64,000 nucleotides of DNA from a virus, in IMG/VR virus record IMGVR_UViG_3300030098_004824, positions 1 through 64,000 of that record. One strand, given 5' to 3'. The position numbers were made by a program, and so were the translations under genes. Below, one piece after another: positions 33,601 through 58,053 of the stretch. How positions within the stretch are numbered: position 1 is the stretch's first letter; every line of letters begins with the position of its first letter. The notes under the pieces are model-generated. The model was not told where the DNA came from, searched no databases, and was given only the letters and a program-made list of their open reading frames with translations.

Positions 33601-35357
33601 TTGGTGCAGGTTCAAGTGTACTTGACTTCTCTATAGATCTTAAAGGATATGGTTATGGTGTTGGTGAAAAATTAACAATTCCTAGAAGTGGATTGACTGG
33701 TATACCAACAACTTCTGACTGGGATGGAAATGAATTCTTACTTACAGTTCAAAAAGTATTTAAAGATGAATTTACTGGATGGACTCTTGGTGAACTTCAA
33801 TTATTAGATTCTCCACAAGGTAGTTTTGATGGAAATAAGAGATCATTTAATATAACTCTTGCAGGTAGTTTGATATCTATTCTTGCTAAGAGAGGATCTA
33901 GAATAAATGTTCAAGATGTTCTTTTAGTCTTTGTTAATGATGTACTTCAAGTTCCTGGTAGAGGATATGAATTCCCTGGTGGTAGTTTAATAACCTTCAG
34001 TGAAGCACCTAAAGAAGGTGATACATGTAAAATACTATTCTATAAAGGAACTGGAAGTACGGATGTTACTTTTGTAGAAGTAATTGAAACTGTTAAACCA
34101 GGTGATATGCTTACAATTAGTGCAAATCCAGATAAGGGACATCCTTATTATTGGAATGAAAATGGAAGAATGGTTCTTAGAATTGATTCTACTGATAAAG
34201 TAACCACACCAATTTATAATGGTCCAGGAAATGTATCTGATGAAACATTATCAAGACCAGTTAAATGGTGTAGACAAACTGAAGATAAATTTATTAATGA
34301 AAAAATAGAATCTAAAGATAGACAATTATATGAACCAATTATCCATCCATATGCACATATTATTAAATCTGTTGGTATTGGTTCAACAGTAGTATATGTT
34401 AATAATGTGAGACCATTCTTCAATCCTTCTAATGAAAATGATCAAACAGTTACATTCCAAGATAAAGTTACCTTTATAAATCAAGATTCTTTAGTTGGTG
34501 CAAGTGCAACTGCAATTGTTTCTGCAGCAGGAACTATTTCTTCTATTGATGTAACTAGTGGTGGTGTTGGTTATTCAACTGCAACTGTTAGTGTTGCAAG
34601 TACTGTTGGTATTGGTACGTCTACTCAATGTTTTGGTAATGTTACTATAAGTGCTGGTGGGACAGTTTCTGGTATAGCAATCACAAGTCCTGGTGTTGGA
34701 TATACATCATCAAATCCACCAGTTGTTCTTATTACTCCACCAACTATTGGTGATAAGGAGGAAAACTCTGTAGTCACTTTTGCTGGTGAGCAAGGTATTA
34801 TTGTTGGATTTGGATCTACTAATGTTGGTGTTGGAACAACTCAATTATTCTTTGATTTACATATTCCACTTAATTCTTATTTGAGAAATGCAAATATTGC
34901 TGGTGCTGCTTTAACATTGAGTGTATTGCAACAAAATGATTACTTTATGGTATTTGATAGTTGTGCTGGTACAGCATCAACTACTATTAGATCTTTAGAT
35001 AATCAGACTGGAAATGTTGTTGGTATTGGAAGTTCCTTTATAGATAATGTGTATGTCGTTAAGACTGCTGAAGATATTGATGGACCAGCTGGTTATGATG
35101 GTATTGGTAACACAACTCTTAGAAGAGTATTCTGTGATATCCAAGATGATTTTACACATGATTATGCAGGATTAATTACATCAACTTATTGGGGTTCCTT
35201 TAGTTGGGGTCGAATTGATGTTAAATCAAGAGCTGGATTAAATTCTTATACCGCATATACTTTGGGTGGTATAGGAACTAATGATGTTACTGGAATTCAA
35301 ACTTCTATGAAAGTTCAAAGGACAGTTGCATTGAAATATAAAAATTATGATACATAA
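21606..35357 (+). CDS. gp7: Giant baseplate wedge initiator gp7-like structural protein (4583 aa)
   Basis: Position between gp6 and gp8; KDFYSSRGT..SFEILFK, YYQNFSY, HTAGFKKF; YHYH-like and fibre repeats. Confidence 0.75.
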   Translation: MPVTGIATHRVKFNNVVQNQLPQYVRNEFPLIENFLKQYYISQEFDGAPVDLIQNIDQYVKVDEITNLTDSAVLKGNITEYVTTINVNQYYSEQLDGFPDSYGIIKIDNEIITYTGKTANSFTGCVRGFSGISSHISPDNPEQLVFESTNAATHLDGATIHNLSNLFLKEFLRKTKRQILPLLDERQFSSDLDENVFIKQSKDFYSSRGTDRSFEILFKSLYNKEVDVVKPREFLFTPSNSDYRVTNDLIVEAIEGDPTNLELATLIQQPYAFGSGIEKAYAPITAVEKIVSNEGNNFYQLSIDAGYSRDISVDGATYGKFSVIPRTRNIGQVSAGATFFDVDSTVGFGTTGELSVTYNDASIGIVSYTSKSLTQFYGVTNVTSPILDGTNIGIDTCAYGQSTVDSTERIKVRINSVINRLEYPKDAYYYNAGDTANISALGRKSRNFKTKNWVYNNYALYNVKSVSLVDSSDQTWDITLFVDHDFKINDSITIVGQDGVDRNGQVVDVLSVKSLTIKGQGGLNINETYTINRNISKTSSTTFIDARKYACNVQNVYEDDKEIVVASPSLPSYTINTDDRTVKFSGTYVGTELLITSGSLADHGYYTGDAIQYDTNITTTTSYDGWGNTITKNVSGERLFPTGLYFVKRVSANSIKLAKSRTDLFNGDFVEVESSTTVVDQTIKPYSFKDRTLSSQKLIRKFADPVYDGNANTETNPGYTGMLCNGVEILNYKSNDVVYYGQIDKIDVLDPGLDYDVVNPPSLLIEDSVGTGATGSVSVKGVLTQLRVLDTGFDYLDKPTVTISGGNGTPSEVLVNMKKIDHSTSFFADLDSDQVGLGTTSGTLGEWYETIGFSTFHKFRNNEKVIYDSGNQSGVGGLSTNAVYYVSTMIGLGNTTESFTKIKLYPTLSDSLAGINTVVLTSYGEGRHALRSFEKKSVLAGINVVSGGIYENKQRKVAASGVSTSKDQITIKDHDYKDGEIIKYTAGDSGIGGLTDGSEYYITKIDNDTFKLSTVGVGTTSGVDFYQKTKQYINLTSIGVGTHTFNYPGITVTVSGNVGVASTGLETFQASVQPIIRGTITSATLDDKGSGYGTGEIINYNRKPDVSLISGEQAQITPIVVDGKIVEVVVLNKGKQYSSPPDIRISGDGTGASVTPILSDGLLSSVKVVESGSGYTQQNTSGIVVFTGRGANFDPHIQKWTVNLAQKNRAHIDEDDGIIEDGINRSFGLQYSHVYAPRKYRQSVSSVDQDGNILYGNKDLYKEQGQEQVRDEHSPIMGWAYDGHPIYGPYGYISKEGGLIERMRSGYIEEASKKTNRPSLIEFPAGFFVEDYTYKPLTQDTVLDKNNGRFCVTPEFPNGTYAYFATIDNIISQEAPFSGYFEPVFPYFIGDSFYAKPNEFNLHRTSNQDEFDLNDTEYYRNTKPYNLIEGKINYKYLTIPNNLNQTASIKGVSPGRIEKIGIVTAGSGYRVNDELVFDNTGTKGAGVSARVSKLKGVSVDNISVATSSITGVEIYPFTKNEYILYSDNPHNFNNLDIISITGLSTESSGLEGNYIAGIETGTYVFAGVGTTGGGGLGPATSTGMVSDINVVGNLGFNHIRENDIIGIGTEEVRVLNVLENASALRIERGVNGVTGTSHTAGAVLRIDQRKIKINAGFKTDHNYRINKQIYFNPSETVGLGTTSGVGIGTTIFFTGITSTNLGISSIYIPTQALYIPGHNLKTGDQVTYSPGNGGSGMSVGMGTTTPENAAGITTLTDGQTLYVAKYSNDIIGLATVRVGLGTTGIFVGLVTNYPLGRQTPLYFRTLGVGNSHSIKTNYSPITGEIVRNLVTIDTGISTHGIHVGHDVDVDVNTGTTTSFDFQYDDFYRKLIVNPRSFDGGNITTSTNSITITDHNWQTGQKIIHQSDGPAEGLGTNEIYYVVKVDKDTIKLSDSYYNATQFVPKTIGIGTTGTNGSIKPINPPLEVYRDATVTFTLANGSLGYEVQGTSYPAFQLNFYKDSNFKYQYDTNDLEKKFNVQRVGVTGVDGTAKVTLSVNKNTPDLLYYKLDTVEVSSLPAVKSEINVDGEVRGNNEFASKTSLYNGTFRVSAGAADTSFSYSVTRIPENTSYISTENATILYTTNCTHTVGPIADVEIKDAGKNYYSLPGITTITTGGGKNAVLEPSSTSIGLIKTVNIDKIGFDLSIDKTVRPSVILPNIIKINSFASFESIGISSQGKGYSTAPSLKVFDGKDDTLITDLDLRYDTGDTSVEILKNTYGMNNVPPKIIPTGNTNGVGISTVGFNTITKYATITLDVGFSTANTFPFVVGDRVLIEGISVGVGSTGKGFNSSAYNYKLFTITSTDPNIGGVGATVSYSLDGDYDDGEIVGLYDGDNSAGRIIAEKTFPVFNAILKFNDFAIGETVESDTTSGSVEAWDRQNGILRVSTSDNFVVNERIKGLASKTEGLASSVTTYNSSFELSPLTKVIKGSETVSGFLNESIQRVQDSLYYQNFSYALRSEVDYDTWDDAISASDHTAGFKKFSDYQLVTPPTEGTDNNMTVGISSNSMEITNELVGFVDLNCVYDFDLVRENVLWQGGGFSSDEIYFNSRILTDYYESAGNRVLLLDDFSGLFNSNPRPTRYSLVDQWPLNTHRSLKYFLFYRDRRFTGEKECMVVDLVHDGSYSYMNQYGGVDTKQALGTFDFQVDGIDGQLLFFPYKYSINDYDIGFIAYSLDDNILGIGTTNIGGIAQLDTTSCSTWAGGNPGFTTTLVSVGHTYRSMKLLVSMSNNNNEHQFNELNIVHDNTDAYAVDYGELDTSQTLTRRESTGFGTYYAYLDSGNMIVKFIPKNNGIGVTINTIQVGLGSDIPNGIGTANMLHADLIAKSTAIESSGSPGFHTVGSYNENFDAGYFFVQVSDSTNNMHSVHEILVVDNDTDDTVGTTYDLEYGVVETNTGLGTFGSRFNGTTRELLFTPKAGLAVTVTSYMNAWTFLDAPSDTLEFNNGMIRTGYGLYEGTENAIKRSFDLTHELNPVFERYWVGNDSNIVSVSADTIKIPNHFWVSGESVKYKHNGGITSAIGIGQSNFAGIGNTTYLPEDLFIIKISEDKVKLASSAENALKRIPIALDITSVGIGTSHRFVSTNQNAKAILSIDNVIQSPVVATAITTVLSDQVWSVDEHISVSGITSFFGSDIIKVGDEIMKIKAVGVGSTNQFKVRRGWMGTQIGYAHTNTLVTKINGNYNIIDNVCTFAEAPFGNVPLSSTTNAPDERDWIGIATGSSFQGRTFMRSGVEDEANETYYRNLIFDDFSNDFNGIDKSFTLKSNGSNVSGFSTENAVMLINDVFQAPGATSNYTLAESSGVTTATFTGFAASIGNDVNTAGIPLGGVLLSVGSTEGLGYQPLVSAGGTVTIVSDQLILGTGLTNPGSISTITIGNTGSGYRARTEYEILTEIASPVGIGSTVIYLKNRNSVFGLIDLLNTGSNIKIGIGTWTSPVDVVSVGGTFVRFHPDHVQGHVIPVDTPVKIEVSNPTVGFANVTAIVSDLQDGGFIGLSTAAYNPMTGIMTVTTLSEHGMSEGDHIKIRDKTLAFSCNAGVGVHTYSGGTVGAAFTDNSNNAYTVTDAAYVGSTGLLTLTIGSHSLTTSNDIWIGANKIVFTCDEDGHATDHPYPRTTDPAYNTGLDIVSKTATTITVNVGIGSTTDAKLYPRESDPISGRWIKTSNVSSKSFEVQVLDNAPSTNRSTHVFQYAHPNAIVVGEKIPEYHVGFATILTGTGHISTNVSITNTEQRFYSKRTISNVGYNSVTGMTTVTTTTPHGLIDDDFVKVSGIAFTCDYKSEVNISGIAYSAASGIMTVTTSAGHGLTTYGTVASTVILTGIGMTCQLDNGSSTHTYPRTNDPTYNGNKVLEVLSSTQFVVNVGISTVPTFYQSGGTAQGAIIAPRPSDPASNGSEVLRVVSPTSFEINSGISTRVHRYARGGTVDKITELEIDSPLSYENLPLYYSSSSISGVGSNATVDLTVGAGSSVLDFSIDLKGYGYGVGEKLTIPRSGLTGIPTTSDWDGNEFLLTVQKVFKDEFTGWTLGELQLLDSPQGSFDGNKRSFNITLAGSLISILAKRGSRINVQDVLLVFVNDVLQVPGRGYEFPGGSLITFSEAPKEGDTCKILFYKGTGSTDVTFVEVIETVKPGDMLTISANPDKGHPYYWNENGRMVLRIDSTDKVTTPIYNGPGNVSDETLSRPVKWCRQTEDKFINEKIESKDRQLYEPIIHPYAHIIKSVGIGSTVVYVNNVRPFFNPSNENDQTVTFQDKVTFINQDSLVGASATAIVSAAGTISSIDVTSGGVGYSTATVSVASTVGIGTSTQCFGNVTISAGGTVSGIAITSPGVGYTSSNPPVVLITPPTIGDKEENSVVTFAGEQGIIVGFGSTNVGVGTTQLFFDLHIPLNSYLRNANIAGAALTLSVLQQNDYFMVFDSCAGTASTTIRSLDNQTGNVVGIGSSFIDNVYVVKTAEDIDGPAGYDGIGNTTLRRVFCDIQDDFTHDYAGLITSTYWGSFSWGRIDVKSRAGLNSYTAYTLGGIGTNDVTGIQTSMKVQRTVALKYKNYDT

Positions 35358-36939: not shown

Positions 36940-39900
36940 ATGTCTCAGCAAACAAATCTTAACGTCGCACCCTATTTTGATGACTTTGACGCTGCGAAGG
37001 ATTATCATAGAGTTTTATTTAAACCTGGATACCCAGTACAGGCTAGAGAATTAACTGGTTTACAATCAGTTCTACAGAACCAGATTGAAAAATTTGGTCA
37101 ACACTTTTTTAAAGAAGGTGCTAAAGTAATACCAGGAAATACAGGATACACTCAACGTTATAAATGTGTTCAGGTAAATAATAATTATCTAGGAGTTCCA
37201 GTTGAAGCTTATGCTGATCAATTAGTAGGAACAAAGATAACTGGAGAACGTTCTGGTGTTACTGCGTTTGTTGATAAAATATTACTTCCAGAAGATTCTG
37301 AAAGAGGTAATTTAACACTTTATATAAACTATTTAAATTCAAGTACTACAAATAATTCTACTGAAGTATTTTTTGATGGTGAAAATTTAACATCCAATTC
37401 AACAATAACATCTGGTCTTCTTGGTAATACAACAATTGCTCCTGGTACACCATTTGCAACAACATTATCTACTGATGCATCTGCTACTGGATCTGCATTT
37501 CAGATTCAAGATGGTGTTTATTTTATTAGGGGTAATTTTGTAAATGTAAATCAAGAAACTCTTATTCTTGATCAATATGGAATAAAACCAAATTATAGAG
37601 TTGGATTGTATGTTGATGAGGAAATAATTAATGCTGATATAGACGAAAATTTAAATGATAATTCTCAAGGTTTTAATAATTATTCAGCACCAGGTGCTGA
37701 TAGGCTTAAAATATCTGTTAGATTATTTAAAAAAGCAACAAATGATTTTGATGATGATAGTTTTGTTGAACTTGCTACTATTATTAATGGGCAAATAAAA
37801 ACTCAGGTTAAAAAGGGTGTTGGTGGTGGAGGAGTAGGAAAAGAAGATATTAATGATACACTTGCAAGAAGAACTTATGCAGAATCTGGTGATTATTATG
37901 TTAGACCATTTGATCTTACTGTATTAGATTCTTTAAATAATGGTATTGGTAATAGAGGTATTTTTGAGGAAGGTCAATTTACATATGGTGGAGCAACAGC
38001 ATCTGATGATTTAGCACTTTATAAGTTTTCTCCAGGTAAAGCATTTGTTCGTGGTTATGAACTAGAAGTAGATAATCCAGTATTTTTAGATGTTAAAAAA
38101 CCAAGAACAACTAAAACTGTTAAAGATCAATCTATAATATACAATACAGGTCCAACTTTAAAAGTAAATAGATCTCTTAGAAATCCAGATGTTGGTATCG
38201 GTAACACTTATGTTTTAAGTCTTAGAGATCAAAGAGTAGGACTTAGCTCAGATACTACGGCTGTTGGTAGTGAAATTGGAGTAGCAAGAGTTTATGATTA
38301 TAGATTAGAATCTGGTTCTTATAGTTCTAATTCTTCATTAAATGAGTGGAATTTAGCTTTATATGATGTTCAAACTTATACTTCTATTACAGTAAATCAG
38401 GCAGTTACTCTTACAGTACCAACTTTTGTTAAAGGTGCTAATAGTGGTGCCACTGGGTTTATAAAAACTGCGGTTAGTAGTAGTGCCTCAATAACATTAT
38501 ATGAAACAACTGGAGAGTTTATTAAGAATGAAGCATTGATAATTGATGGTATTCCTGATGGTAGAATAATTACAGCAATAACAAAATATACATTATCTGA
38601 TGTTAAGTCTGTTTTTGGATCAAATAATAGACTTACTGGTGGTGATAAATTTAATGCTGATGTAGTTCAATCAGAAAGTCTTTTTATTGGGGCTGCAAGA
38701 ATAGGACAACAGAGTAGTAATTCAAGTACAGTAACAAGTGCAAATCCATTATTTCCTGGAGATATAAAGGTTGGTAACTTAGTTCAATATAGTGATTTAG
38801 AAACCAGTAGTGATCCTGTAATGGGGAGAGTAACTGCTGTTACAAGTTCTAATATCACTATTGCTGGAGTAACAACTGTTCCTGGAATTGTTAATGGTAA
38901 AATGCCAATTGCTAGTGTTGGGCATACTAATGGATATAATGCATCTGATTTTGCCGTAGTTTCTACTAAGTTAACTGGTTCTTCAGATAATACACTATAC
39001 ACACATTTACCAAATACTTCTATTTCTAATGTTGATTTAACTGATGCTACATTAACTATTAGAAAAACTTTTACAGTTGATATAACAAATGGGCAAATTG
39101 ATGCTTCTACTATTCCAACTGCAGGAACAAATGAAACATTTTTAGCATTTGATGAAGAAAGATATGCATTAATAAGATCTGATGGAACAACTGAGCCATT
39201 AGATGCCTCTTGGTTCTCATTTGGTGGTGGTGGATCTACTTGCCAAATTTATGGACTTGGTGGAAATGACACTGATGCAACTCTTATTGCTACTTTAAGA
39301 AAAGGTAAGCCTAAAGCAAAAATAAAAATAAAAAATAGAGTAAATTCAATAACAGTTAATTTATCAAAATATTCTGGATCTGGTATTGGAGCTACTACTT
39401 TAAATGATGGATTAACTTATGGAAATTATCCATTTGGAACTAGGGTGCAAGATGAAATTATATCTTTGAATGTTCCTGATATAATTGAAATACACGGTGT
39501 TTTTGAATCAGAAAATGTAAGTGATCCTACTGCACCAGCAATGAATATTACTTCTATAAGTAATTTTACTGGAACAAGTTCTGATCTATTAGTTGGTGAA
39601 GTAATAAAGGGTGTTAAAACGGGTGCAATAGCTATTGTTGCCGAAAAATTAACATCTACAAAGATTACTTTCTTATATAAGAATGATATAAGATTTAAAG
39701 AAGGTGAAAGAATTACTTTTGCAGAATCAAATACTACAGCAACTATTTCTACTCTTGAATCAGATAGTTTTGATATATCTGCAAACTTTACTTATGAGAA
39801 TGGTCAAGAACCAACTTTTTATGATTATGGTAGAATAAAGAGAAAAGTATCTGCTGAAGAACCTTCTAAAAAATTAAAAATATATTTTAAGAGTGCATAT

Positions 39901-42900
39901 TATGATTCTACTGATACTGGAGATGTTACTACAGTAAATTCTTACGAAGATTTTAATCCTTCTACTGAAATTCCTGGTATTGGTGGATTCCGTGCAACTG
40001 ATATAATTGATATTAGACCAAGAACTTCTGCTTATACAGTTGCAGCAGATGCAAGATCTCCTCTTGAATTTGATGGAAGAACATTTAATGCAAATGGCAA
40101 TTCTTCTGCAAATATGTTGGCATCTGATGAATCAATATTTGCTCATTACGCATATTATCAAGGTAGGAAGGATAGAGTTTATTTAACAAAAGATGGTAAA
40201 TTCCAAGTTAAATATGGAGATCCATCTGATAGTCCAAATCTTCCAAATCCAGTTGATGATGCTTTAGAAATAGCACAAATTGCATTACCACCATATCTTT
40301 ATAGTATTGATCAAGCTTCTGTTAAATTCATGGAGCATAAGAGATTTAGAATGGTTGATATTAAAGGTCTTGAGAATAGAATAAGAAGTCTTGAATATTA
40401 CACATCTTTATCTTTACTAGAAACAAATACTGCTAATTTATTTGTTTCAGATGCTGGTGGATTGAATAGATTCAAATCAGGATTTTTTGTTGATAATTTT
40501 AGTGGATTTAAACCACAAGATGATAAAATCAAAATTAACAATAGTATTGATAGAAAGTATAATGAACTTAGACCTAGACATTATACAAATGCAGTTGATT
40601 TGGTATTTGGACCAGTTATAAATGTAGATCCAACTGCTGATTTAGCATTTTCTGCCATTGAAGGTAATAATATAAGAAAAGCAAGTGATATTATTACATT
40701 AGATTATAGTGAGGTGGAATATATTAAACAAAGTTTTGCAACAACATCAGAAAGTGTAACACCTTTCTTAATTAGTTTTTGGCAAGGAACTCTTGAATTA
40801 ACACCTGCTACAGATACTTGGATAGACACTGTTAGATTGGATCCAAAAATTATTCAAACTGAAGGTGATTATGCTGCTACAATGAAAACTTTAGCAGAGA
40901 CTGAAGGTGTAGATCCACAAACTGGAATGGGTCCAACAATATGGAATCCTTGGGAAACTACTTGGACAGGTGTAAGTGAAATTGAAAGTCTTGGTAATAT
41001 GCAAGAAACCACTAGTGATGGTCCTGAATGGGATGTTGGTGGTTGGCCAAATGGTGACCCTTCAACTAACCCTGCTCAAATATTCTTTACAAGAACAACA
41101 ACGGTAACGCAAGATCTTTATAGAGAAACTGTGAGAGAAGGTGTGGCAAATAGAAGTGGTACTAGAACTATCGTAACTGAGTCATATGATAAACAAAGTC
41201 TTGGTGATAAGATTGTAAGTAGAGATTTAGTTCCTTATATGAGATCAAGGAATGTTGAATTTGTTAGTGAAAGAGTTAAACCTCTTACAAGATTATATGC
41301 TTTCTTTGATGGTGTTAATGTAAGCAAGTATTGTGTTCCAAAATTAATAGAAATTGAAATGGTTTCTGGTTCATTCCAAGTTGGAGAAACTGTTAAAGGA
41401 GTCTCTCTTGCGAGTGGTGTTGGTGATGTACAGATACCTGGAATGTCACCACAAATTACATTCAGAGCTGCTCAAGCAAATCATAAAAAAGGTACTTACA
41501 ATGCCCCATCAAAGACCTTTACTGATAATCCATACAATAATAAACCACTATCTTCAGCATATTCATCAACTTCAACGATATTAAATGTTGATACCTATTC
41601 TTTGGGTGACCAGGCTAGTGGTCAATATTGGGGATGGGTAGAAGAAGGAATGGTTCTTACTGGACAAACTTCTGGTGCTGAAGCAAAAATTACTAGTGTA
41701 AAACTTGTATCCGATTTATCAGCAGTTTGTATTGGTAGTTTCTTTATTCCAAATCCAAATAATGTAAATCATCCAAGATTTGAAACGGGAAGTAAAGTAT
41801 TCACTCTTACTGATGAGTCAACAAATGATCCTGATGAAGCATCAACTCTTGCAGATGAATCATTTACTGCTGCTGGTACATTAGAGACTGTACAGGAAGA
41901 AATTTTATCAATAAGAAATGCAAGAGTTGAACAAAAACAAGAATTCCAAGAAAAACATGTTAATGAATCTCTAGGAACTCAAGTTGTTGGTACTCAAGTT
42001 GTTAGTCAATCTGAAGAGGATATTTATGTTGGATGGTATGATCCTCTTGCACAATCATTCTTAGTTGAAGAGGGTACTGGAGTATTTGTTACTAAATGTG
42101 ATGTATTCTTTAAAACAAAAGATGATATGGACATACCTGTGGTATTCCAGATTAGAACTATGCAAAATGGATTACCCACACAACATATTTTACCATTCTC
42201 AGAAATTGTAGTAGATCCATCTGATGTTAATGTTTCTGGTGATGGATCAGTTGCTACAACAATTGAGTTTAAAGCACCGATTTATCTTGAGGGTAAAGGT
42301 ACTGAATATGCTATTGCTTTGGCATCTAACTCAACAAAATATAGTGTTTTTATATCAAGAATAGGTGAAACTGATCTTATTCAAGATACGTTTATTTCTA
42401 ACCAACCATATTTGGGTTCTTTATTCAAGTCCCAAAATGCTTCTACTTGGGAACCAAGTCAATGGGAAGATCTTAAGTTCACATTGTATAGAGCAGATTT
42501 CATAGGATCTGGTAGTGTTGAATTGTACAGTCCTGAATTGAAAGAAGGTAATGGACAAATTCCAACATTAATGCCAGATTCCTTAATCTTAAAATCAAGA
42601 AAGATTAGAGTTGGTTTAGGAACAACTTTATGGGGTGATCAAGTAGGTAAAGGATATGAAAATGGTAATACTTTTACTCAAGATGGTACAAATGCTACAG
42701 GTAGTTTAGTTGGAACTGCTGGAACTGCTTCTGCAGAATTGGCAATAGCTAATGCTGGTATTGGATATACTCCTTTAAGTGGTAGTGCTATTTTCTATGA
42801 TGTAGATTTAGTAACTCTTAGTGGTCAAGGTAGTGGTGCAAAAGCAAATGTTAAGGTTACTAATGGAGTTGCTGTTGCTGCTACTGTAAGTAACGCTGGT

Positions 42901-44562
42901 GGTCGTGGATATGTTGTTGGTGATGTTGTTGGTATAACAACGATTGGAACTGGTGATGGTGGTTCTAAGGGAACTCAAGTAGCAGGAGTAGGTCGAGATG
43001 CAAGATTTACTGTTCAAGGAATTGGTGCAACAAGTGAACTAATTTTCGAGAAAGTTCAAGGTGAATGGAGAACTAATTCAACATCCAATTCTATTTTCTT
43101 TACTACAAGTGCTGGTATAACAACTGAATTGAATTTTGGTACTACTACTGGTGGAGATGGTGGTGATGTTCAAACAACTACTATAACTGAAGAAACTAAT
43201 GGCACCCATATTCAGGTGAACCATAAGAATCATGGAATGTACTTTACAGATAACTTGGTTAAGATTTCTGGAGTTATGCCAGATGCCAAACCAACAAAAT
43301 TAACTGCTGCATATGATTCTGGATCAACAGCAAGTATATCTGTCGCATCTGCTTCCACATTTACAACATTTGAGGGTGTAGGTATTGGTACAACAAATAC
43401 AGGTTATCTTCAGATTGGTGATGAAATCATTCGATATAATACTGTTAGTGGAAATACTATTGGCGGTTCTTTACTTGAAAGAGGATCTAATCCAGTAAGT
43501 TATCCTGTTGGTACTCCAGTTTATAAGTATGAACTTGGTGGAATTAACTTGATGAGAATTAATAAAACTCATAATATATCAACCTCCACTTCTTCTTCTG
43601 ATACTGGATCAATTACATTTGATTCATATAATATTAAATTAGATATGTCAGAGAAGTTCTATGCTAATAATGATGATAGAAGTTTAGATACTGGACTTGG
43701 AAAACTTTATATTAATCAATCAAAATCTTCTGGTGGATATGGTATTAAAGCAACACAAAATATGCCTTATGAAATAGTTACTCCTATTATTCATAATTTA
43801 ACTGTTGCAGGAACAACTCTTAATGCTGAAATGAGGACTATTACGAGTAAGAGTCTAAGTGGTACTGAACTACCATATATTGATAATGGTTTTGAAACAG
43901 TAGTTCCAAACCAATCAAATTATCTTAATACTACAAGAATGATTGCATCTAAAGTTAATGAAGATGCTAAATTAGGACAAATTCCTGGTAATAAGTCATT
44001 TAATATGAGACTCTTATTAAATACAGTAGATTCTCATGTATCTCCAGTTATTGATGGTCAAAGAACATCTATTATTTGCACATCAAATAGAGTAAATAGT
44101 ATTATTACAGATTATGCAACTGATGAAAGAGTTGCTTCAATTGTTGAAGATCCTACTGCATGTCAGTATATTACTAAAGAAATACAATTAGAAAATCCAG
44201 CAACTTCATTAAAACTTCTTGTAAGTGCTCATATTAATACAAATTCTGATATGAGAGCATTTTATGCAATTAGTAATAATGAGGGATTTGAACCAATATT
44301 TGTTCCATTCCCTGGATATGATAATTTAAATTCTAGAGGATTAGTAATTTCTGATGAAAAGAGTGATGGAAAACCAGATGCTTTTATTAAGAAAACAAAT
44401 AGTTATGGATTTAGTTCTAAAAATCTTGAGTATAATGAATATACATTTACTGCAGATAAGTTACCTGCATTTAGATCATATAGAATTAAATTTGTCTTGA
44501 CTTCTACTAATCAAGTATTTGTTCCAAGAGTTAAAGAATTACGAGTAATTGCACTTGCTTGA
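36940..44562 (+). CDS. Large VrlC/DUF4815-like virion structural protein (2540 aa)
   Basis: TNLNVAPYFDDFD, PVQARELT, DPLAQSF, GSLFKSQN, LRVIALA. Confidence 0.8.
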   Translation: MSQQTNLNVAPYFDDFDAAKDYHRVLFKPGYPVQARELTGLQSVLQNQIEKFGQHFFKEGAKVIPGNTGYTQRYKCVQVNNNYLGVPVEAYADQLVGTKITGERSGVTAFVDKILLPEDSERGNLTLYINYLNSSTTNNSTEVFFDGENLTSNSTITSGLLGNTTIAPGTPFATTLSTDASATGSAFQIQDGVYFIRGNFVNVNQETLILDQYGIKPNYRVGLYVDEEIINADIDENLNDNSQGFNNYSAPGADRLKISVRLFKKATNDFDDDSFVELATIINGQIKTQVKKGVGGGGVGKEDINDTLARRTYAESGDYYVRPFDLTVLDSLNNGIGNRGIFEEGQFTYGGATASDDLALYKFSPGKAFVRGYELEVDNPVFLDVKKPRTTKTVKDQSIIYNTGPTLKVNRSLRNPDVGIGNTYVLSLRDQRVGLSSDTTAVGSEIGVARVYDYRLESGSYSSNSSLNEWNLALYDVQTYTSITVNQAVTLTVPTFVKGANSGATGFIKTAVSSSASITLYETTGEFIKNEALIIDGIPDGRIITAITKYTLSDVKSVFGSNNRLTGGDKFNADVVQSESLFIGAARIGQQSSNSSTVTSANPLFPGDIKVGNLVQYSDLETSSDPVMGRVTAVTSSNITIAGVTTVPGIVNGKMPIASVGHTNGYNASDFAVVSTKLTGSSDNTLYTHLPNTSISNVDLTDATLTIRKTFTVDITNGQIDASTIPTAGTNETFLAFDEERYALIRSDGTTEPLDASWFSFGGGGSTCQIYGLGGNDTDATLIATLRKGKPKAKIKIKNRVNSITVNLSKYSGSGIGATTLNDGLTYGNYPFGTRVQDEIISLNVPDIIEIHGVFESENVSDPTAPAMNITSISNFTGTSSDLLVGEVIKGVKTGAIAIVAEKLTSTKITFLYKNDIRFKEGERITFAESNTTATISTLESDSFDISANFTYENGQEPTFYDYGRIKRKVSAEEPSKKLKIYFKSAYYDSTDTGDVTTVNSYEDFNPSTEIPGIGGFRATDIIDIRPRTSAYTVAADARSPLEFDGRTFNANGNSSANMLASDESIFAHYAYYQGRKDRVYLTKDGKFQVKYGDPSDSPNLPNPVDDALEIAQIALPPYLYSIDQASVKFMEHKRFRMVDIKGLENRIRSLEYYTSLSLLETNTANLFVSDAGGLNRFKSGFFVDNFSGFKPQDDKIKINNSIDRKYNELRPRHYTNAVDLVFGPVINVDPTADLAFSAIEGNNIRKASDIITLDYSEVEYIKQSFATTSESVTPFLISFWQGTLELTPATDTWIDTVRLDPKIIQTEGDYAATMKTLAETEGVDPQTGMGPTIWNPWETTWTGVSEIESLGNMQETTSDGPEWDVGGWPNGDPSTNPAQIFFTRTTTVTQDLYRETVREGVANRSGTRTIVTESYDKQSLGDKIVSRDLVPYMRSRNVEFVSERVKPLTRLYAFFDGVNVSKYCVPKLIEIEMVSGSFQVGETVKGVSLASGVGDVQIPGMSPQITFRAAQANHKKGTYNAPSKTFTDNPYNNKPLSSAYSSTSTILNVDTYSLGDQASGQYWGWVEEGMVLTGQTSGAEAKITSVKLVSDLSAVCIGSFFIPNPNNVNHPRFETGSKVFTLTDESTNDPDEASTLADESFTAAGTLETVQEEILSIRNARVEQKQEFQEKHVNESLGTQVVGTQVVSQSEEDIYVGWYDPLAQSFLVEEGTGVFVTKCDVFFKTKDDMDIPVVFQIRTMQNGLPTQHILPFSEIVVDPSDVNVSGDGSVATTIEFKAPIYLEGKGTEYAIALASNSTKYSVFISRIGETDLIQDTFISNQPYLGSLFKSQNASTWEPSQWEDLKFTLYRADFIGSGSVELYSPELKEGNGQIPTLMPDSLILKSRKIRVGLGTTLWGDQVGKGYENGNTFTQDGTNATGSLVGTAGTASAELAIANAGIGYTPLSGSAIFYDVDLVTLSGQGSGAKANVKVTNGVAVAATVSNAGGRGYVVGDVVGITTIGTGDGGSKGTQVAGVGRDARFTVQGIGATSELIFEKVQGEWRTNSTSNSIFFTTSAGITTELNFGTTTGGDGGDVQTTTITEETNGTHIQVNHKNHGMYFTDNLVKISGVMPDAKPTKLTAAYDSGSTASISVASASTFTTFEGVGIGTTNTGYLQIGDEIIRYNTVSGNTIGGSLLERGSNPVSYPVGTPVYKYELGGINLMRINKTHNISTSTSSSDTGSITFDSYNIKLDMSEKFYANNDDRSLDTGLGKLYINQSKSSGGYGIKATQNMPYEIVTPIIHNLTVAGTTLNAEMRTITSKSLSGTELPYIDNGFETVVPNQSNYLNTTRMIASKVNEDAKLGQIPGNKSFNMRLLLNTVDSHVSPVIDGQRTSIICTSNRVNSIITDYATDERVASIVEDPTACQYITKEIQLENPATSLKLLVSAHINTNSDMRAFYAISNNEGFEPIFVPFPGYDNLNSRGLVISDEKSDGKPDAFIKKTNSYGFSSKNLEYNEYTFTADKLPAFRSYRIKFVLTSTNQVFVPRVKELRVIALA

Positions 44563-52161: not shown

Positions 52162-52194
52162 AAAAATATAAATATCTATATGATGTGTAACGAA

Positions 52195-52437
52195 ATGCAA
52201 ACATTAAACGAAGCAACACGTTTACCCAACTATAATAAAGTCGGTAATATTATCGACGTGTACTTGGCTTGGCGAGGAAAAAACTATATGATAAAAATGT
52301 TTTTCCCGTCGGTTAAAGTACCTTCACGCAGAGAAGTCCTGGATCAAGTGAGAAAAGTGTATCCTGGATCTAAACTCTGGAACTACGAGATTTCCAACTA
52401 TGAACCAGGAGCACCACTCCTCCAAGTCGGAGGATAA
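52195..52437 (+). CDS. Hypothetical late protein
   Basis: TATAAATA at 52167. Confidence 0.6.
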   Translation: MQTLNEATRLPNYNKVGNIIDVYLAWRGKNYMIKMFFPSVKVPSRREVLDQVRKVYPGSKLWNYEISNYEPGAPLLQVGG

Positions 52438-52570
52438 TAAAACTAAAGATTTAGAAAAGAAAGTAGAGAATTTAGAAAAAACATTAGAATTAGTTAAAAA
52501 AACCATAGATCATGATAAACAAATGAAATTACAACAACCATTAGAATTCGGTAAATATGAAATGACTTAG
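52400..52570 (+). CDS. Small coiled-coil hypothetical protein (start uncertain)
   Basis: ...DLEKKVENLEKTLELVKK... Confidence 0.45.
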   Translation: MNQEHHSSKSEDNKTKDLEKKVENLEKTLELVKKTIDHDKQMKLQQPLEFGKYEMT

Positions 52571-52581
52571 GAGGCTTTATT

Positions 52582-54225
52582 ATGGATGATATTTACTTAG
52601 GTAATCCCAATTTAAAAAAGGCAAATGTTCCTCAAGAGTTTACTCAGGAACAGATTGAAGAATTTATGAGATGTGCAGCTGACCCTGTATATTTTGCTAA
52701 AACTTATATGAAAATTGTTTCTCTTGATGAGGGACTTGTTCAATTTCATCCTTATGATTTTCAAGAGAAGTTAATTAAAAACTTCCACGAGAATAGATTT
52801 AATATTTGTAAGATGCCTCGTCAGACTGGTAAGTCTACTACGTCTGTATCATATCTATTACATTATTGCGTTTTTAACGATAGTGTTAATATTGGTATAT
52901 TGGCAAACAAGGCAGCAACTGCCAGAGATTTGTTAGGAAGATTACAAACAGCATATGAAAACTTACCTAAATGGATGCAACAAGGAATTGTATCTTGGAA
53001 TAAAGGATCTCTGGAGTTGGAAAATGGATCAAAGATACTAGCTGCTTCTACGTCTGCAAGTGCTGTCCGAGGCATGTCGTTCAATATCCTTTTCCTCGAC
53101 GAGTTCGCCTTTGTCCCAAATCATATCGCAGAAGCATTCTTTAGTTCTGTTTATCCTACTATTACGTCTGGTAAAACTACCAAAGTAATAATGGTTTCAA
53201 CCCCTCACGGGATGAATCATTTCTATAGGTATTGGCACGATGCTGAAAGAGGAAAGAACGAATATATTCCAACTGATGTTCATTGGTCTCAAGTTCCAGG
53301 TAGAGATGAGGAATGGAAGAGACAAACTATTGCTAACACATCCGATCAACAATTTAAGATTGAGTTTGAATGCGAATTCTTAGGATCTGTTGATACTCTT
53401 ATCGCACCAAGTAAATTAAGAACTCTTGTTTACGAAGAACCTAAAACAAGAAATGCTGGACTTGATGTATATGAAGATGTTATTAAAGGACATGATTATG
53501 TAATGACAGTTGACGTGGCAAGAGGAGTTAGTGAAGATTATTCTGCTTTTGTTGTTGTTGATATTACAGAGTTTCCTCATAAGATAGTAGCGAAGTATAG
53601 GAATAATGAAGTTAAACCAATGCTATTCCCTAATGTTATTTGGGAGTTAGCAAAGAATTATAATAAAGCATTTATAATGTGTGAGGTAAATGATATTGGA
53701 GATCAAGTTGCATCCATTCTAAACTTTGATTTTGAGTATGAAAATCTTCTTATGTGTTCTATGAGAGGTAGAGCAGGTCAAGTTGTGGGTCAGGGATTCT
53801 CTGGTAAAAAGACACAACTTGGAGTTAAGATGTCAAAGACGGTTAAAAAGGTTGGTGCATTAAATTTAAAAACCTTAATAGAAGCAGATAAGATTATATT
53901 TAATGATTATGATATTATATCTGAACTTACAACCTTTATTCAAAAACATAATTCATTTGAAGCAGAAGAAGGATGTAATGATGACCTTGCAATGTGTTTA
54001 GTAATATATGCATGGTTAGTTCAAAGTGATTATTTTAAAGAACTTACTGATCAAGATGTTCGTAAGAGATTGTATGAAGAACAAAAGAATGCAATAGAAC
54101 AGGATATGGCACCTTTTGGATTTATTATTGATGGAACTGATGATAATAGTTTCGTTGACCCTGAAGGTGATAGATGGTTTACTGATGAGTATGGTGATAT
54201 GTCGCATATGTGGGAGTATCAATAA
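52582..54225 (+). CDS. gp17: Terminase large subunit gp17
   Basis: PRQTGKST, LDEFAF, STPHG, DVARG, DDLAM. Confidence 0.96.
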   Translation: MDDIYLGNPNLKKANVPQEFTQEQIEEFMRCAADPVYFAKTYMKIVSLDEGLVQFHPYDFQEKLIKNFHENRFNICKMPRQTGKSTTSVSYLLHYCVFNDSVNIGILANKAATARDLLGRLQTAYENLPKWMQQGIVSWNKGSLELENGSKILAASTSASAVRGMSFNILFLDEFAFVPNHIAEAFFSSVYPTITSGKTTKVIMVSTPHGMNHFYRYWHDAERGKNEYIPTDVHWSQVPGRDEEWKRQTIANTSDQQFKIEFECEFLGSVDTLIAPSKLRTLVYEEPKTRNAGLDVYEDVIKGHDYVMTVDVARGVSEDYSAFVVVDITEFPHKIVAKYRNNEVKPMLFPNVIWELAKNYNKAFIMCEVNDIGDQVASILNFDFEYENLLMCSMRGRAGQVVGQGFSGKKTQLGVKMSKTVKKVGALNLKTLIEADKIIFNDYDIISELTTFIQKHNSFEAEEGCNDDLAMCLVIYAWLVQSDYFKELTDQDVRKRLYEEQKNAIEQDMAPFGFIIDGTDDNSFVDPEGDRWFTDEYGDMSHMWEYQ

Positions 54226-54359
54226 TGATTTTAGAAACATTCTTAATAGCAGCAGCATTACCATTCGTGGCATTATCACTTTACTTTGGAACCAAAGGAG
54301 GGTATTATGATAGTGATGACTATACTGGTGATGGTTGTGCTCACGATGTCCAACGATGA
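54225..54359 (+). CDS. ndhP: NDH-1 small subunit NdhP homologue (44 aa)
   Basis: [40 protein letters not shown] matches the NdhP pattern TM-FGT(K/R)xG(F/Y)YD(S/T)DxYxGxGxAH; TAATG overlap with gp17. Confidence 0.8.
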
Positions 54360-54499
54360 ATAACCTATTTAAAATCTTTTATACTAAATGGTTTAGATCT
54401 GCACCAGTTGTAGCAACCATTTGGTTAACTATTACAGCAGTCATACTCATAGAGTTTAATTACTTCTTCCCAGATCTTTTATTCCATCCAATGCAATGA
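54356..54499 (+). CDS. psaJ: Photosystem I subunit IX PsaJ (47 aa)
   Basis: [33 protein letters not shown], typical PsaJ; ATGA overlaps on both sides. Confidence 0.9.
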
Positions 54500-55053
54500 A
54501 AGCAATCTTTAATTACTTAAAAGAAATAAAAGATACTGCTAAATATATGTTACAAGGGTTAGAAGTAACCTTTGATCATATGAGAAGGAGACCTGTAACA
54601 ATACAGTATCCTTATGAAAAACTGATACCATCTGAAAGGTATCGTGGACGTATTCACTATGAGTTTGATAAGTGTATTGCTTGTGAAGTATGTGTTAGGG
54701 TATGTCCAATAAATCTCCCAGTAGTCGATTGGGTGATGAACAAACAAACAAAGAAAAAAGAACTAAGAAACTATTCAATTGATTTTGGAGCTTGTATATT
54801 CTGCGGAAACTGTGTAGAATACTGTCCTACCAATTGTTTAAGTATGACGGAGGAATATGAACTTTCTACATTCGATAGGCACTCACTCAACTATGATAAT
54901 GTCGCTCTTGGACGATTGCCCACTAATGTTACAAGTGATCCCTCAGTTAGGGCAATGCGTGAACTTGCTTACTTACCAAAAGGAGAGATGGATCCACATG
55001 AAGTACCAGACAGCAAACCCCGTGTAGCAGGACCTCCAAATGGAACTTACTGA
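54496..55053 (+). CDS. ndhI: NAD(P)H-quinone oxidoreductase subunit I
   Basis: [44 protein letters not shown]. Confidence 0.95.
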
Positions 55054-55276
55054 AGAAAATGTAATCAAAGTCCTAGAAGAATTACTTCCGTACATAGAAG
55101 CAGATGGAGGTTTTCTTGAGTTTGTAGAAATAGAACACGAAACTAATTTTGTTAAAGTTAGATTGGGTGGTGCTTGTTCTACTTGTGCAATGAGTGCTAT
55201 TACTTTGAAGCAGGGTATAGAAAGTAAATTAATGCATGAAATCCCTGATTGTTATGGAGTAATACAGGTACTATGA
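55040..55276 (+). CDS. nfuA: Nfu/NifU C-terminal-like Fe-S cluster carrier
   Basis: [10 protein letters not shown]...[20 protein letters not shown]. Confidence 0.88.
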
Positions 55277-55500
55277 TTGAAATTGATGATCAAATTAAAT
55301 TGGGTCATCTATTGTTACAGGATAGAAGATGTAGAGTTTGTGGTAAAACTAAAAATTTAATAGATGGTTTTTATAGAACCAGAAAGAAGAGAGGACCAGT
55401 TCCATCATCATGGTCATATGAATGTAAAGAATGCACTATTAAAAGAATTGTAGATCATAAGAAACCAAAAATTAAAGATTGGGAATATCCAGATTGGTAG
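55273..55500 (+). CDS. Small Zn-finger protein (CxxC...CxxC)
   Basis: CRVC...YECKEC; ATGA overlap with nfu. Confidence 0.65.
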   Translation: MIEIDDQIKLGHLLLQDRRCRVCGKTKNLIDGFYRTRKKRGPVPSSWSYECKECTIKRIVDHKKPKIKDWEYPDW

Positions 55501-55536
55501 TTCACTCCAAGTTTCCCCATTGAAAATGTTCTAAAG

Positions 55537-55544
55537 AATAAATA
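55537..55544 (+). promoter_or_regulatory. T4-type late promoter (AATAAATA) upstream of gp18
   Basis: Similar TAAATA sites precede gp25, gp8, gp13, gp15, gp19, gp20 and gp22, at about 19089, 35356, 45154, 48613, 58060, 58701 and 61928. Confidence 0.65.
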
Positions 55545-55575: not shown

Positions 55576-58053
55576 ATGGCCACTCCTCAATTATCTCCTG
55601 GAGTACTGGTAAGGGAGGTTGATTTAACAGTAGGAAGAGCTGATAATGTATTAGATAATATTGGTGCAATCGCTGGTCCTTTCCAAATTGGACCTGTTGA
55701 TGAAGCAATTGACATCAGCACAGAAGAAGATTTTATAAGTGCGTTTGGTAAACCACTTTCTACAGACCGTCAATATGAGTATTGGATGAGTGCATCATCA
55801 TACTTAACATATGGTGGAGTTTTAAAAGTAGTCAGAACCGATGGAGATCTATTAAACAATGCTAACGCAGGTGTTGGTATTGCTTCAACAAGTTCTACTT
55901 ATGGTAAAGTTAAGAACTATGACGATTATAAAAATAATGCGGAAAATACAACAAATTGGACTTATGCTGCTAAAAACCCAGGTACTTGGGGTAATGGAAT
56001 AAAGGTTTGTCAGATTGATGACTTAGCAGACCAGATACTTGGAATCAATACATCAAACCTTGCTGGAGTTGGTCTGACTATTGGTTATGGAATAACTGCT
56101 TCTTTAGGAACTCAAGCAAATAAAGTTTCAATTCCAGGTGCAGGTTCAACTGATGGATTTGTAGGGTATATTAAAGGTATTATCACTGGTGTTACAACTG
56201 ATACTATTGGTGGTAATAGTACAGTTGATGTTAAATTTACTTCAAGGGTATCAGCATCAAGTACATCATATACGGATGTACTTAATACCACATCAATTAA
56301 TGCTGGACTTGCTGCTACTAATAGAATATACACAAATAGTATTGCTGGACTTTCTACTGGAACAGGAATAACTGTAAAACCAATTCTACCAGGAATTAGT
56401 AGTTTATCTGCTAATGATGCTAGTCATTCAATTGTTTCTATTGGAGATACCTTCGTTACTCTTGGTGCTGTAGTTAACAGTTCAAGTGTTAGTGCTGGTG
56501 TTGCTGTTACCTTTAAAAGGTTAGTAACAATTGGTGGAACAGAAACTCTTGCAGATTATAAAGAAGGTTCTACCTATGCTGAGTTTAAAACAGGAACTGT
56601 ACATATTGTAGGTACAGATGAAGAAATAAGTGCTTCTCCAACTGTAGTATCCAAGACTGATTGGTATGATGAGCAGAAGTTGGGTCTAACTAATGCGACA
56701 ATCTTCTGGAAATCCATTGCACCAAAACCATCATCTAATGTTTATACAACAGATAGGAATGGTAAGGGTGATGGAATGCACATTGTAGTTGTTGACGATG
56801 AGGGTAATGTAACAGGAATTAAGGGTAATACTCTTGAGAAGCATACATTCTTATCTAAAGCAAAGGATGGAGTATCTAATGTAAATGCTCCTGAAAAAGT
56901 TTGGTATAAGAATTATATTGCAGATAATTCGCAATATGTTTATGCAGGATATAATGCATCAAACGCAATAGATACTTACCATGAAACTGCTCCAAGAGCA
57001 ACTGGATTCTCAGGAACATCATTCACACCAGTTACGAATGCTGATAGTCTTTGGGGTCTAAATGCACAGGATGTTACATATTCTTCACTTGGAAATGTAA
57101 CATATACACTTGGTGGTGGTGTTGATTATGGTGCAAATAAGGGAATGTCTGCAACCCTTGCTAATTTAATGACATCTTATGATCTATTTGGTAATAAGGA
57201 TGAAATTGAAGTTGATTACTTAATAATGGGACCTGGTTGTACTACTGAAGACAAGTCTCAAGCAAAAGCAAATAAATTGCTTACAATTGCTGGAGATAGA
57301 AAAGATTGTATGGCAGTCATCAGTCCTCATAGAGCAAATGTAGTTAATGTAACAAACACAACTACGCAGACAAATAACGTAATTAACTTCTTTGGACCGC
57401 TAAGTTCTTCATCTTACGGTGTATTCGATAGTGGTTACAAGTACACTTATGACAGATTTAATAATGAATTCAGATACATTCCTTGTAACGCAGACGTTGC
57501 TGGAATGATGTGTCGCACAAGTCTCACTGCTTATCCTTGGTTCTCACCAGCAGGTCAGCAAAGAGGTGTACTTAATAATGGAATCAAACTTGCATATAAT
57601 CCAACAAAGGCACAAAGAGACAAACTTTATCCAAGTAGAATTAACTCCTTCATAACCACACCTGGCGTAGGAACAATTCTATTCGGTGATAAGACTGCAC
57701 TCGCATATGCATCAGCGTTTGATAGAATTAACGTTCGTCGTTTATTCCTAACAATTGAGCAAGCATTAGAGAAAGCAGCACAGGCTCAACTCTTCGAACT
57801 TAACGATGAGTTAACAAGAGCAAACTTTAGAAACATCGTTGAACCATATCTTCGTGATATTCAGGCAAAACGAGGACTTTACGGATTCCTTGTTGTTTGT
57901 GACACCACAAATAATACACCTGATATCATTGATAACAACGAATTCCGAGCAGACATCTTCCTGAAGCCTGCGAAGAGCATCAACTTCATTACCTTGACAT
58001 TCGTTGCTACACGTACTGGTGTTAGCTTCGAAGAGGTCGTGGGCAGGGTTTAA
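55576..58053 (+). CDS. gp18: Tail sheath protein gp18
   Basis: SPGVLVREVDLT, PWFSPAG, FDRINVRRLF. Confidence 0.95.
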   Translation: MATPQLSPGVLVREVDLTVGRADNVLDNIGAIAGPFQIGPVDEAIDISTEEDFISAFGKPLSTDRQYEYWMSASSYLTYGGVLKVVRTDGDLLNNANAGVGIASTSSTYGKVKNYDDYKNNAENTTNWTYAAKNPGTWGNGIKVCQIDDLADQILGINTSNLAGVGLTIGYGITASLGTQANKVSIPGAGSTDGFVGYIKGIITGVTTDTIGGNSTVDVKFTSRVSASSTSYTDVLNTTSINAGLAATNRIYTNSIAGLSTGTGITVKPILPGISSLSANDASHSIVSIGDTFVTLGAVVNSSSVSAGVAVTFKRLVTIGGTETLADYKEGSTYAEFKTGTVHIVGTDEEISASPTVVSKTDWYDEQKLGLTNATIFWKSIAPKPSSNVYTTDRNGKGDGMHIVVVDDEGNVTGIKGNTLEKHTFLSKAKDGVSNVNAPEKVWYKNYIADNSQYVYAGYNASNAIDTYHETAPRATGFSGTSFTPVTNADSLWGLNAQDVTYSSLGNVTYTLGGGVDYGANKGMSATLANLMTSYDLFGNKDEIEVDYLIMGPGCTTEDKSQAKANKLLTIAGDRKDCMAVISPHRANVVNVTNTTTQTNNVINFFGPLSSSSYGVFDSGYKYTYDRFNNEFRYIPCNADVAGMMCRTSLTAYPWFSPAGQQRGVLNNGIKLAYNPTKAQRDKLYPSRINSFITTPGVGTILFGDKTALAYASAFDRINVRRLFLTIEQALEKAAQAQLFELNDELTRANFRNIVEPYLRDIQAKRGLYGFLVVCDTTNNTPDIIDNNEFRADIFLKPAKSINFITLTFVATRTGVSFEEVVGRV

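Follow-up and report, generated by a model that had tools for sequence, protein, structure and literature searches.

Do four host-like genes that lie in a row between the terminase and the tail sheath of a cyanophage form one functional unit, or did they come together from separate sources? The question is raised by a stretch of 64,000 nucleotides of viral DNA (IMG/VR record IMGVR_UViG_3300030098_004824, positions 1 to 64,000), here called the window. In it homologues of ndhP, psaJ, ndhI and nfu, followed by a small zinc-ribbon (Zn-ribbon) gene, are placed between gp17 (large terminase) and gp18 (tail sheath). An earlier note on this DNA had read the four as a compact cassette for cyclic electron flow through photosystem I (PSI) and NDH-1, with its own iron-sulfur cluster-loading factor and coupled to the terminase. 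We find that ndhP-psaJ-ndhI is a conserved, recurrent linked module of viral contigs, while nfu occupies the gp17-gp18 gap independently of it and is not part of a conserved four-gene module. The block is thus probably, though by no means certainly, made up of two auxiliary units of host origin that are independent of each other, the trio and nfu, and that would serve to maintain host complexes.

The trio across viral contigs

IMG/VR was surveyed from three sides, using ndhI, nfu and the viral PsaJ peptide, and the proteins of the window were mapped onto the fetched loci. Relatives of ndhI are found on 193 viral contigs and relatives of nfu on 438. A 14-residue motif of viral PsaJ occurs on 44 contigs, a number that includes only copies with that exact peptide because the search was made with a degenerate DNA pattern of the motif. 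Gene layouts were counted in 80 ndhI loci, in the 80 closest nfu loci and in 38 psaJ loci.

In 35 of the 38 psaJ loci both ndhP and ndhI flank the gene. The remaining three loci are situated at a contig end or close to one: two are cut off from both partners, and in one only ndhP is out of reach. Three orders of the trio occur, ndhP-psaJ-ndhI, ndhI-ndhP-psaJ and psaJ-ndhI-ndhP, and they are cyclic rotations of one and the same order. One contig (L031, identical to L265; IMGVR_UViG_3300006565_000895) contains three diverged copies of ndhP, 86-98% identical to that of the window, in the order ndhP-ndhI-ndhP-psaJ...nfu...ndhP; as a possible intermediate, this contig could account for the origin of the rotated orders.

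The position of the trio directly behind gp17 is a minority arrangement, found in 3 of the 38 psaJ loci plus the window. The order gp17-ndhP-psaJ-ndhI is seen in L262 and L282, and gp17-ndhP-ndhI-Zn-ribbon in L016. In most relatives the trio is located elsewhere and in a rotated order, with nfu remaining at gp17. Coupling to the terminase, which had been taken as a feature of the cassette, is therefore not a property of the module.

nfu as a separate resident of the gp17-gp18 gap

For nfu the dominant layout is gp17-nfu-(Zn-ribbon)-gp18 without ndh genes or psaJ, seen in about 41 of the 80 loci; in another 26 nfu stands alone without an informative flank. Viewed from ndhI, nfu is found within 4 kb in 12 of 80 loci. 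The separation can also be followed in individual relatives. In one of them (G007) gp17 adjoins nfu and the trio is 20 kb away, and in a second (G006) the distance between nfu and ndhI is 24 kb. A third (G004; IMGVR_UViG_3300020471_000006), 202.5 kb long and 100% complete according to CheckV, gave no nfu match, and its trio lies about 40 kb away from gp17. Its ndhI is split over both ends of the record (202248-202517 and 3-113), which is consistent with a circularly permuted assembly that was cut within the gene.

The survey of gene order in virome contigs thus bears out the trio and speaks against a unit of four. In particular, the proposal that nfu is the cassette's own cluster-loading factor does not agree with the many nfu loci that lack ndh genes and psaJ, nor with the relatives where the trio lies 20-40 kb off.

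Taken as a whole, the earlier reading amounts to one integrated module of four genes, in which a dedicated Nfu would load the clusters of NdhI and which would be deliberately regulated, late in infection, together with the ATP-consuming terminase. It is suggested by the overlap at every junction from gp17 to nfu and by the need of NdhI for two [4Fe-4S] clusters; NfuA reportedly loads PsaC, which is similar to NdhI. Further, the whole order gp17-ndhP-psaJ-ndhI-nfu-Zn-ribbon-gp18 recurs in a second contig (L011, identical to L276), and at least five contigs have nfu next to ndh genes in other surroundings. However, nfu mostly follows gp17 without the trio, 68 of the 80 ndhI loci have no nfu within 4 kb, the complete relative has no nfu match, gp17 adjoins the trio in only the few loci given above, and phage P-SSM2 has nifU and no ndhI match. 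We therefore regard an integrated module of four genes as unlikely.

Identity of the four genes

The four genes of the window are the following.

54225..54359, + strand: ndhP, 44 amino acids, small single-helix subunit specific to NDH-1L
54356..54499, + strand: psaJ, stand-alone, 47 amino acids, PSI subunit IX
54496..55053, + strand: ndhI, 185 amino acids, NDH-1 subunit with two [4Fe-4S] clusters
55040..55276, + strand: nfu, 78 amino acids, stand-alone NifU C-terminal domain

All four identities proposed in the earlier note hold. PsaJ matches PF01701 in Pfam (E-value 3.5e-16; 59.8 bits versus a cut-off of 22.4), the NCBIfam equivalog NF002743 (83.2 versus 69) and, in a sequence search of the PDB, the PsaJ chains of solved PSI structures (best E-value 6e-15). 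NdhI exceeds the cut-offs of the equivalogs TIGR00403 (309.2 bits versus 302.35) and NF004537 (249.1 versus 163), the Fer4 domain is matched twice, and its translation contains both CxxCxxCxxxCP motifs, i.e. those of the [4Fe-4S] clusters N6a and N6b. Nfu matches PF01106 (1.4e-21; 76.8 bits versus 27) and is a lone 78-amino-acid domain, as in the host gene with its open frame of 83-84 amino acids; in its CxxC motif, GACSTCAMS, the part GACSTC aligns with host GACGSC.

NdhP has no family match at E ≤ 1 in Pfam or NCBIfam, but neither library holds a suitable model for so short a protein and this is not evidence against homology. A check of the small open reading frames (ORFs) by profile models consequently settles PsaJ, while for NdhP the answer comes from PDB chains and host genes. 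Residues 5-40 match NDH-1L chains of Thermosynechococcus (6khi_P, E-value 8.7e-8; 6hum_P, 4.1e-7), and the protein is 58-69% identical to that of a gene which three complete Prochlorococcus genomes each have in single copy. The motif FGTKxGYYDxDxYxGxGxAH is common to the window protein and its homologues. There is also a match to phrog_2173 (1.2e-16), a family of unknown function. For Nfu the identity to Prochlorococcus is 55-57%, and for the cassette genes overall the identity to host genes is 55-83%.

The starts of the two smallest genes are well placed: the ATG codons at 54225 (ndhP) and 54356 (psaJ) match the starts of viral homologues, and the upstream GTG and TTG codons do not. Among distinct viral copies, at a synonymous rate (dS) near 1, the ratio of nonsynonymous to synonymous substitutions (dN/dS) is 0.13 for ndhP, 0.05 for psaJ, 0.07 for ndhI and 0.06 for nfu. 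Such low values indicate that the small ORFs are coding and not due to chance, and they constitute strong evolutionary evidence that ndhP and psaJ are translated and functional.

Layout of the locus

The window comprises the initial 64 kb of a viral contig of 77.6 kb and represents a fragment of a T4-like cyanomyovirus, the host of which is probably Prochlorococcus. Its G+C content is 33.7%, and that of the four cassette genes is 31-39%. The gp17 gene shows 75-85% DNA identity to terminase genes of marine cyanomyoviruses. The block is framed by these genes.

52582..54225, + strand: gp17, large terminase (Pfam Terminase_6N 2.9e-22, Terminase_6C 3.5e-15)
55273..55500, + strand: four-Cys Zn-ribbon ORF, 75 amino acids (phrog_4723, 7.8e-37), closing the overlap chain
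55576..58053, + strand: gp18, tail sheath (Phage_sheath_1C 5.4e-14, Phage_sheath_1 1.1e-9)

The junction between gp17 and ndhP is a 1-nucleotide overlap, TAATG, made of the TAA stop of gp17 and the ATG of ndhP. At ndhP/psaJ and psaJ/ndhI there is a 4-nucleotide overlap each, ATGA, and ndhI and nfu overlap by 14 nucleotides. The coordinates and overlaps described earlier for gp17 through nfu are correct on the + strand, and the chain extends one gene further: nfu and the Zn-ribbon ORF are joined by another ATGA overlap, after which a spacer of 75 nucleotides precedes gp18. However, overlapping starts and stops are the usual packing in the genome of the window as well as in related loci, so the overlaps of the cassette alone are not special.

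The Zn-ribbon ORF is found directly after gp17 or nfu in many relatives. In PHROGs and in phage records it is labelled 'endonuclease VII'. It has no curated Pfam match, Endonuclease_7 included (C1_2 reaches 20.1 bits, below its cut-off of 26), and it is about half as long as gp49 of T4; for these two reasons the name is doubtful.

Just upstream of gp17 two ORFs, 52180-52437 (85 amino acids) and 52400-52570 (56 amino acids), overlap in different frames. When they were checked as a split gp16 no informative family match was found. They lie at the site expected for gp16 and could be a divergent or split form of it. Further upstream, the structural module of the window includes two giant ORFs on the + strand, 21606-35357 (4583 amino acids) and 36940-44562 (2540 amino acids).

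Putative expression signals

Two motifs that resemble late promoters are found on the two sides of the block.

52167..52174, + strand: T4-type late-promoter-like motif TATAAATA, putative promoter in the spacer that leads up to the ORF at 52180; no other motif of this type lies closer upstream of gp17 and the cassette
55538..55544, + strand: late-promoter-like motif ATAAATA, 32 nucleotides before gp18, putative promoter

In cyanomyoviruses ATAAATA motifs act as late promoters. In its relaxed form ATAAATA occurs seven times between 44 and 64 kb of the window, and six of the seven occurrences lie just upstream of the start of a structural gene. Between 52167 and 55538 there is no further late-promoter-like motif and no terminator on the + strand. 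A scan for sigma-70-like promoters returned 20 sites versus 15.9 expected and is uninformative. Judged from the motifs, it is plausible that a single late transcript starts at about 52167 and takes in gp17 together with the five small genes. We also considered whether the trio has its own promoter at its other locations and rejected this: most copies are preceded by an overlapping ORF, and ATAAATA is nearby in few.

Relatives of all four genes are present, as Logan contigs, in marine RNA libraries of four studies. One RNA-library contig bridges psaJ and ndhI, and another spans the ndhI-to-ndhP junction of a rotated order. In two RNA runs the depth over ndhP-ndhI is higher than over the 3' end of gp17, but such depth cannot rank genes. 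Low RNA cover at 54129-54209 and 55263-55505 is likewise no evidence of a transcript boundary, and small word shares, of at most 0.11, say nothing on habitat. In one metatranscriptome run (X8) the summed contig depth is about 2966 at 54372-54452, i.e. in the middle of psaJ only; it probably stems from other psaJ relatives at least 85% alike and not from the phage of the window.

Origin of the genes

The homologues of the four genes are not neighbours in the host. In Prochlorococcus MIT 9107 the positions are 0.47 Mb (ndhI), 0.69 Mb (nfu), 0.74 Mb (psaJ) and 1.09 Mb (ndhP), and in three complete Prochlorococcus genomes the four are hundreds of kb apart, with a spread exceeding 600 kb. The trio was therefore not captured as an operon; phages brought its genes together and have kept them so, and this speaks for a common function.

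A tree of NdhI was built from 70 viral and 67 cellular sequences by quick maximum likelihood in IQ-TREE, with support only from the Shimodaira-Hasegawa-like approximate likelihood ratio test (SH-aLRT). A single branch (SH-aLRT 86) has all viral sequences on the same side, and they form two subclades. The subclade that contains the phages P-TIM40 and P-TIM68 is mostly without psaJ, and the one that contains the window (support 96) is mostly with psaJ. Two contigs labelled as Klebsiella and Chitinophaga metagenome-assembled genomes (L160 and L091) carry an ndhI of cyanobacterial type, 80% identical to that of the window, which groups with Cyanobium-like sequences in the tree; mis-binning is the probable explanation.

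Among the PSI genes searched for, psaJ is the only one found in these phages. The complete relative has psbA, and no psaA or psaB match was obtained in it.

A virus-specific PsaJ

The motif IEFNYFFPD distinguishes viral PsaJ from that of the host. It has Tyr in every viral copy seen, the window included, at a position where the main host copies have Arg in 33 of 33 cases, alongside Glu and His. In the C-terminal motif of the PsaJ in the window Glu and His are present and Arg is replaced by Tyr; the Glu and His positions are also kept in most other viral copies. We take these two residues to correspond to the chlorophyll ligands of Thermosynechococcus elongatus PsaJ in 1JB0.

Viral PsaJ could thus be a modifier: the Tyr form would alter the PsaF/PsaJ rim, where it may affect donor docking, attachment of the Pcb antenna or docking of NDH-1L, and the trio would remodel PSI and its partners instead of just maintaining them. 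The fixed difference between viral and host copies points in this direction, as does the retention of the positions aligned with chlorophyll ligands. Further, psaJ is linked to the NDH-1L-specific ndhP wherever the flanks reach far enough, and in a complete relative without psaA and psaB the protein must act on host PSI. On the other hand, a single substitution could be neutral drift that was fixed when the viral lineage was founded, and on balance we find a modifier improbable.

An extension of this idea is that the trio couples host PSI to NDH-1L physically or functionally, so that Tyr-PsaJ, NdhP and fresh NdhI together would promote a PSI-NDH-1L supercomplex and a switch to cyclic flow. Prochlorococcus is not known to have the phycobilisome linker that bridges PSI and NDH-1L in other cyanobacteria. 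Such coupling is a speculative and quite improbable scenario.

A second psaJ-like copy is present in 4 of 121 sampled Prochlorococcaceae genomes (G002, G020, G098 and G126).

G002, Prochlorococcus sp. MIT 0916, psaJ-like copies: C1:1179817-1179948 and C1:1811646-1811765
G098, second copy: C1:1791055-1791186
G126, second copy: C1:1050029-1050160
G020, second copy: C1:93157-93267

In the second copy of MIT 0916, Gly-Tyr-Met stands in place of the Glu-Arg-His of PsaJ, and the N-terminal half is like viral PsaJ; a third psaJ-like copy in this genome is degenerate and has in-frame stops. Judging from these sequences, the second host copies may reflect exchange of psaJ between phage and host.

A probable composite of two units

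We return to the reading that we favour, in which the block consists of two independent units. The first would be the phage-assembled trio ndhP-psaJ-ndhI, which landed directly behind gp17. The second would be nfu, in this phage lineage normally alone between gp17 and the small Zn-ribbon gene. The arrangement in the window would then have arisen by insertion of the trio between gp17 and the resident nfu. Transcription of the cassette probably takes place at the end of a late gp17 message that begins near 52167, with translational coupling at the overlaps; placement at the tail of gp17 would be one of several and not essential to the module.

NdhI bears two terminal [4Fe-4S] clusters, and PsaJ is located at the outer rim of PSI, next to PsaF. 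A rationale of electron flow and ATP supply has previously been proposed for phage ndhI and PSI genes. In line with it, after the shut-off of host gene expression, phage-made subunits that are small, limiting or labile would keep host complexes working: NdhP as the 'glue' that would hold NdhD1 on NDH-1L, NdhI as the two-cluster electron-transfer subunit and PsaJ as a peripheral PSI subunit beside PsaF. NdhP has been described to bind NdhD1 and to act as 'molecular glue' of NDH-1L (PMC11794437; see also PMC4131877), and when it is deleted, about half of NDH-1L is set free as NDH-1M and cyclic electron flow falls (PMC11794437). If NDH-1L and PSI stay assembled, cyclic and respiratory electron flow could continue and provide ATP for phage replication. 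Nfu would be a general [4Fe-4S] carrier that may help to mature PsaC, NdhI and other Fe-S proteins, and would not be dedicated to the cassette. Of the compact PSI-NDH-1 module that had been proposed, the trio accordingly survives, being recurrent, assembled in phages and suited to a role in NDH-1L/PSI electron flow; nfu does not belong to it.

Some points weigh against this reading. The source contig is only 36% complete according to CheckV, which limits the view of its set of photosynthesis genes. Away from gp17, nfu abuts ndhP or ndhI in L021, L028, L030, L042 and L077, and these few contigs are compatible with some functional tie or looser association between nfu and the ndh genes. The RNA evidence consists of short Logan contigs of at least 85% likeness, which may be DNA carry-over or come from relatives, and among the RNA-library contigs listed none bridges gp17 and ndhP. 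Finally, the fixed change from Arg to Tyr suggests that viral PsaJ is not a plain replacement part.

That the block is an artefact or dead cargo, i.e. a chimeric assembly with host DNA or decaying, functionless hitch-hiker genes, is effectively refuted, since even though the source is an incomplete metagenomic fragment and the genes are 55-83% identical to those of the host, dozens of independent viral contigs, as well as virus records derived from single cells, show these genes and junctions again, the block has structural genes of the phage on either side, the G+C of the four genes is 31-39% against 33.7% for the window, dN/dS is 0.05-0.13 and viral NdhI stands apart from host sequences in the tree.

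Novelty and meaning

In general, the locus is largely ordinary: each gene is known from cyanophages, and both the trio and the exact composite are present in public viral contigs. The earlier note had mentioned that some of the genes were known singly; in fact all four are on record, in P-TIM40, P-TIM68, P-SSM2 and data of the Global Ocean Sampling (GOS) expedition. Two papers list stand-alone psaJ, ndhI, ndhD and ndhP as cyanophage genes (PMC5019241, PMC10452541), and the first credits stand-alone viral psaJ to Sharon et al. 2011, who used GOS metagenomes. Reviews also name ndhP, which is on record in S-SCSM2R too (PMC12801897, PMC10452541), and viral nifU was reported in 2008 in GOS data (PMC2186209). 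In the open-access literature searched, which does not include Sharon et al. 2011, we found no paper that genuinely treats psaJ, ndhI and cyanophage together; the lone paper with all three terms was, by its title and abstract, a chloroplast-genome paper and was set aside as irrelevant.

What is new here is the recognition of nfu as a separate resident of the gp17-gp18 gap, of the three orders as cyclic rotations and of the virus-specific Tyr of PsaJ. Photosynthesis genes of cyanophages shape how a large share of the ocean's primary producers use light during infection. The locus adds little on which genes phages carry, but it sharpens the picture: psaJ, the sole PSI gene found in the phages concerned, is always in the company of two NDH-1 genes, the trio was put together in phages from dispersed host genes, viral PsaJ has its fixed Tyr, and nfu stands apart from the trio. 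If the trio does link PSI to NDH-1L, it would make the cyclic electron flow of Prochlorococcus genetically accessible in a compact form. At present the result is a well-supported annotation plus a lead.

Comparison with known phages

A close likeness is found in unannotated records. The contig that shares the full order of the window (L011, L276; IMG/VR UViG_3300020416_000180) has a gp17 that is 93% identical. Among single-cell records, Marine virus AG-345-P14 contains a contiguous ndhP-psaJ-ndhI with 95-98% identity to the window, and Marine virus AG-345-D19 contains psaJ-ndhI-nfu.

The Prochlorococcus phages P-SSM2 and P-SSM5 share with the window an annotated NifU-like gene (81% identity) and an unannotated ndhP homologue (82%). 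They differ in that nifU and ndhP are 12 kb apart in P-SSM2, and no ndhI or psaJ match is found in the two records.

The Prochlorococcus phage P-TIM68 (NC_028955) is a T4-like cyanomyovirus whose ndhI is 86% identical to that of the window; it is annotated, and the record states that it was 'confirmed using proteomics'. A NifU-like gene with 50% identity to nfu of the window lies elsewhere in its genome; the ORF after ndhI was tried as a candidate Nfu and rejected (E-value 0.91). P-TIM68 has a full PSI core, in the form of a psaJF-C-A-B-K-E-D cassette followed by ndhI, whereas psaA and psaB are absent from the relatives of the window. In P-TIM68 ndhI comes after psaD and a TQO gene, not after ndhP-psaJ, and it is not beside gp17. 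Further, PsaJF of this phage is a fusion whose J part is only 36% identical to PsaJ of the window and has a different motif, indicating that the stand-alone psaJ was separately acquired. The rationale offered for the genes of P-TIM68 is reportedly enhanced cyclic electron flow.

P-TIM40 (NC_028663) has the order gp027-ndhI-speD. It differs from the window in that there is no psaJ between ndhP and ndhI and no adjacent nfu, that the pair is found among tail and baseplate genes and auxiliary metabolic genes (CP12, speD, cpeT) instead of behind gp17, and that its NdhI belongs to the other viral subclade. However, its ndhI, together with that of P-TIM68, is 86-87% identical to that of the window, and the unannotated gp027, 43 amino acids long, is 65% identical to NdhP of the window. 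As gp027 overlaps the start of ndhI by 4 nucleotides, the ndhP-ndhI pair is coupled in P-TIM40 as it is in the window.

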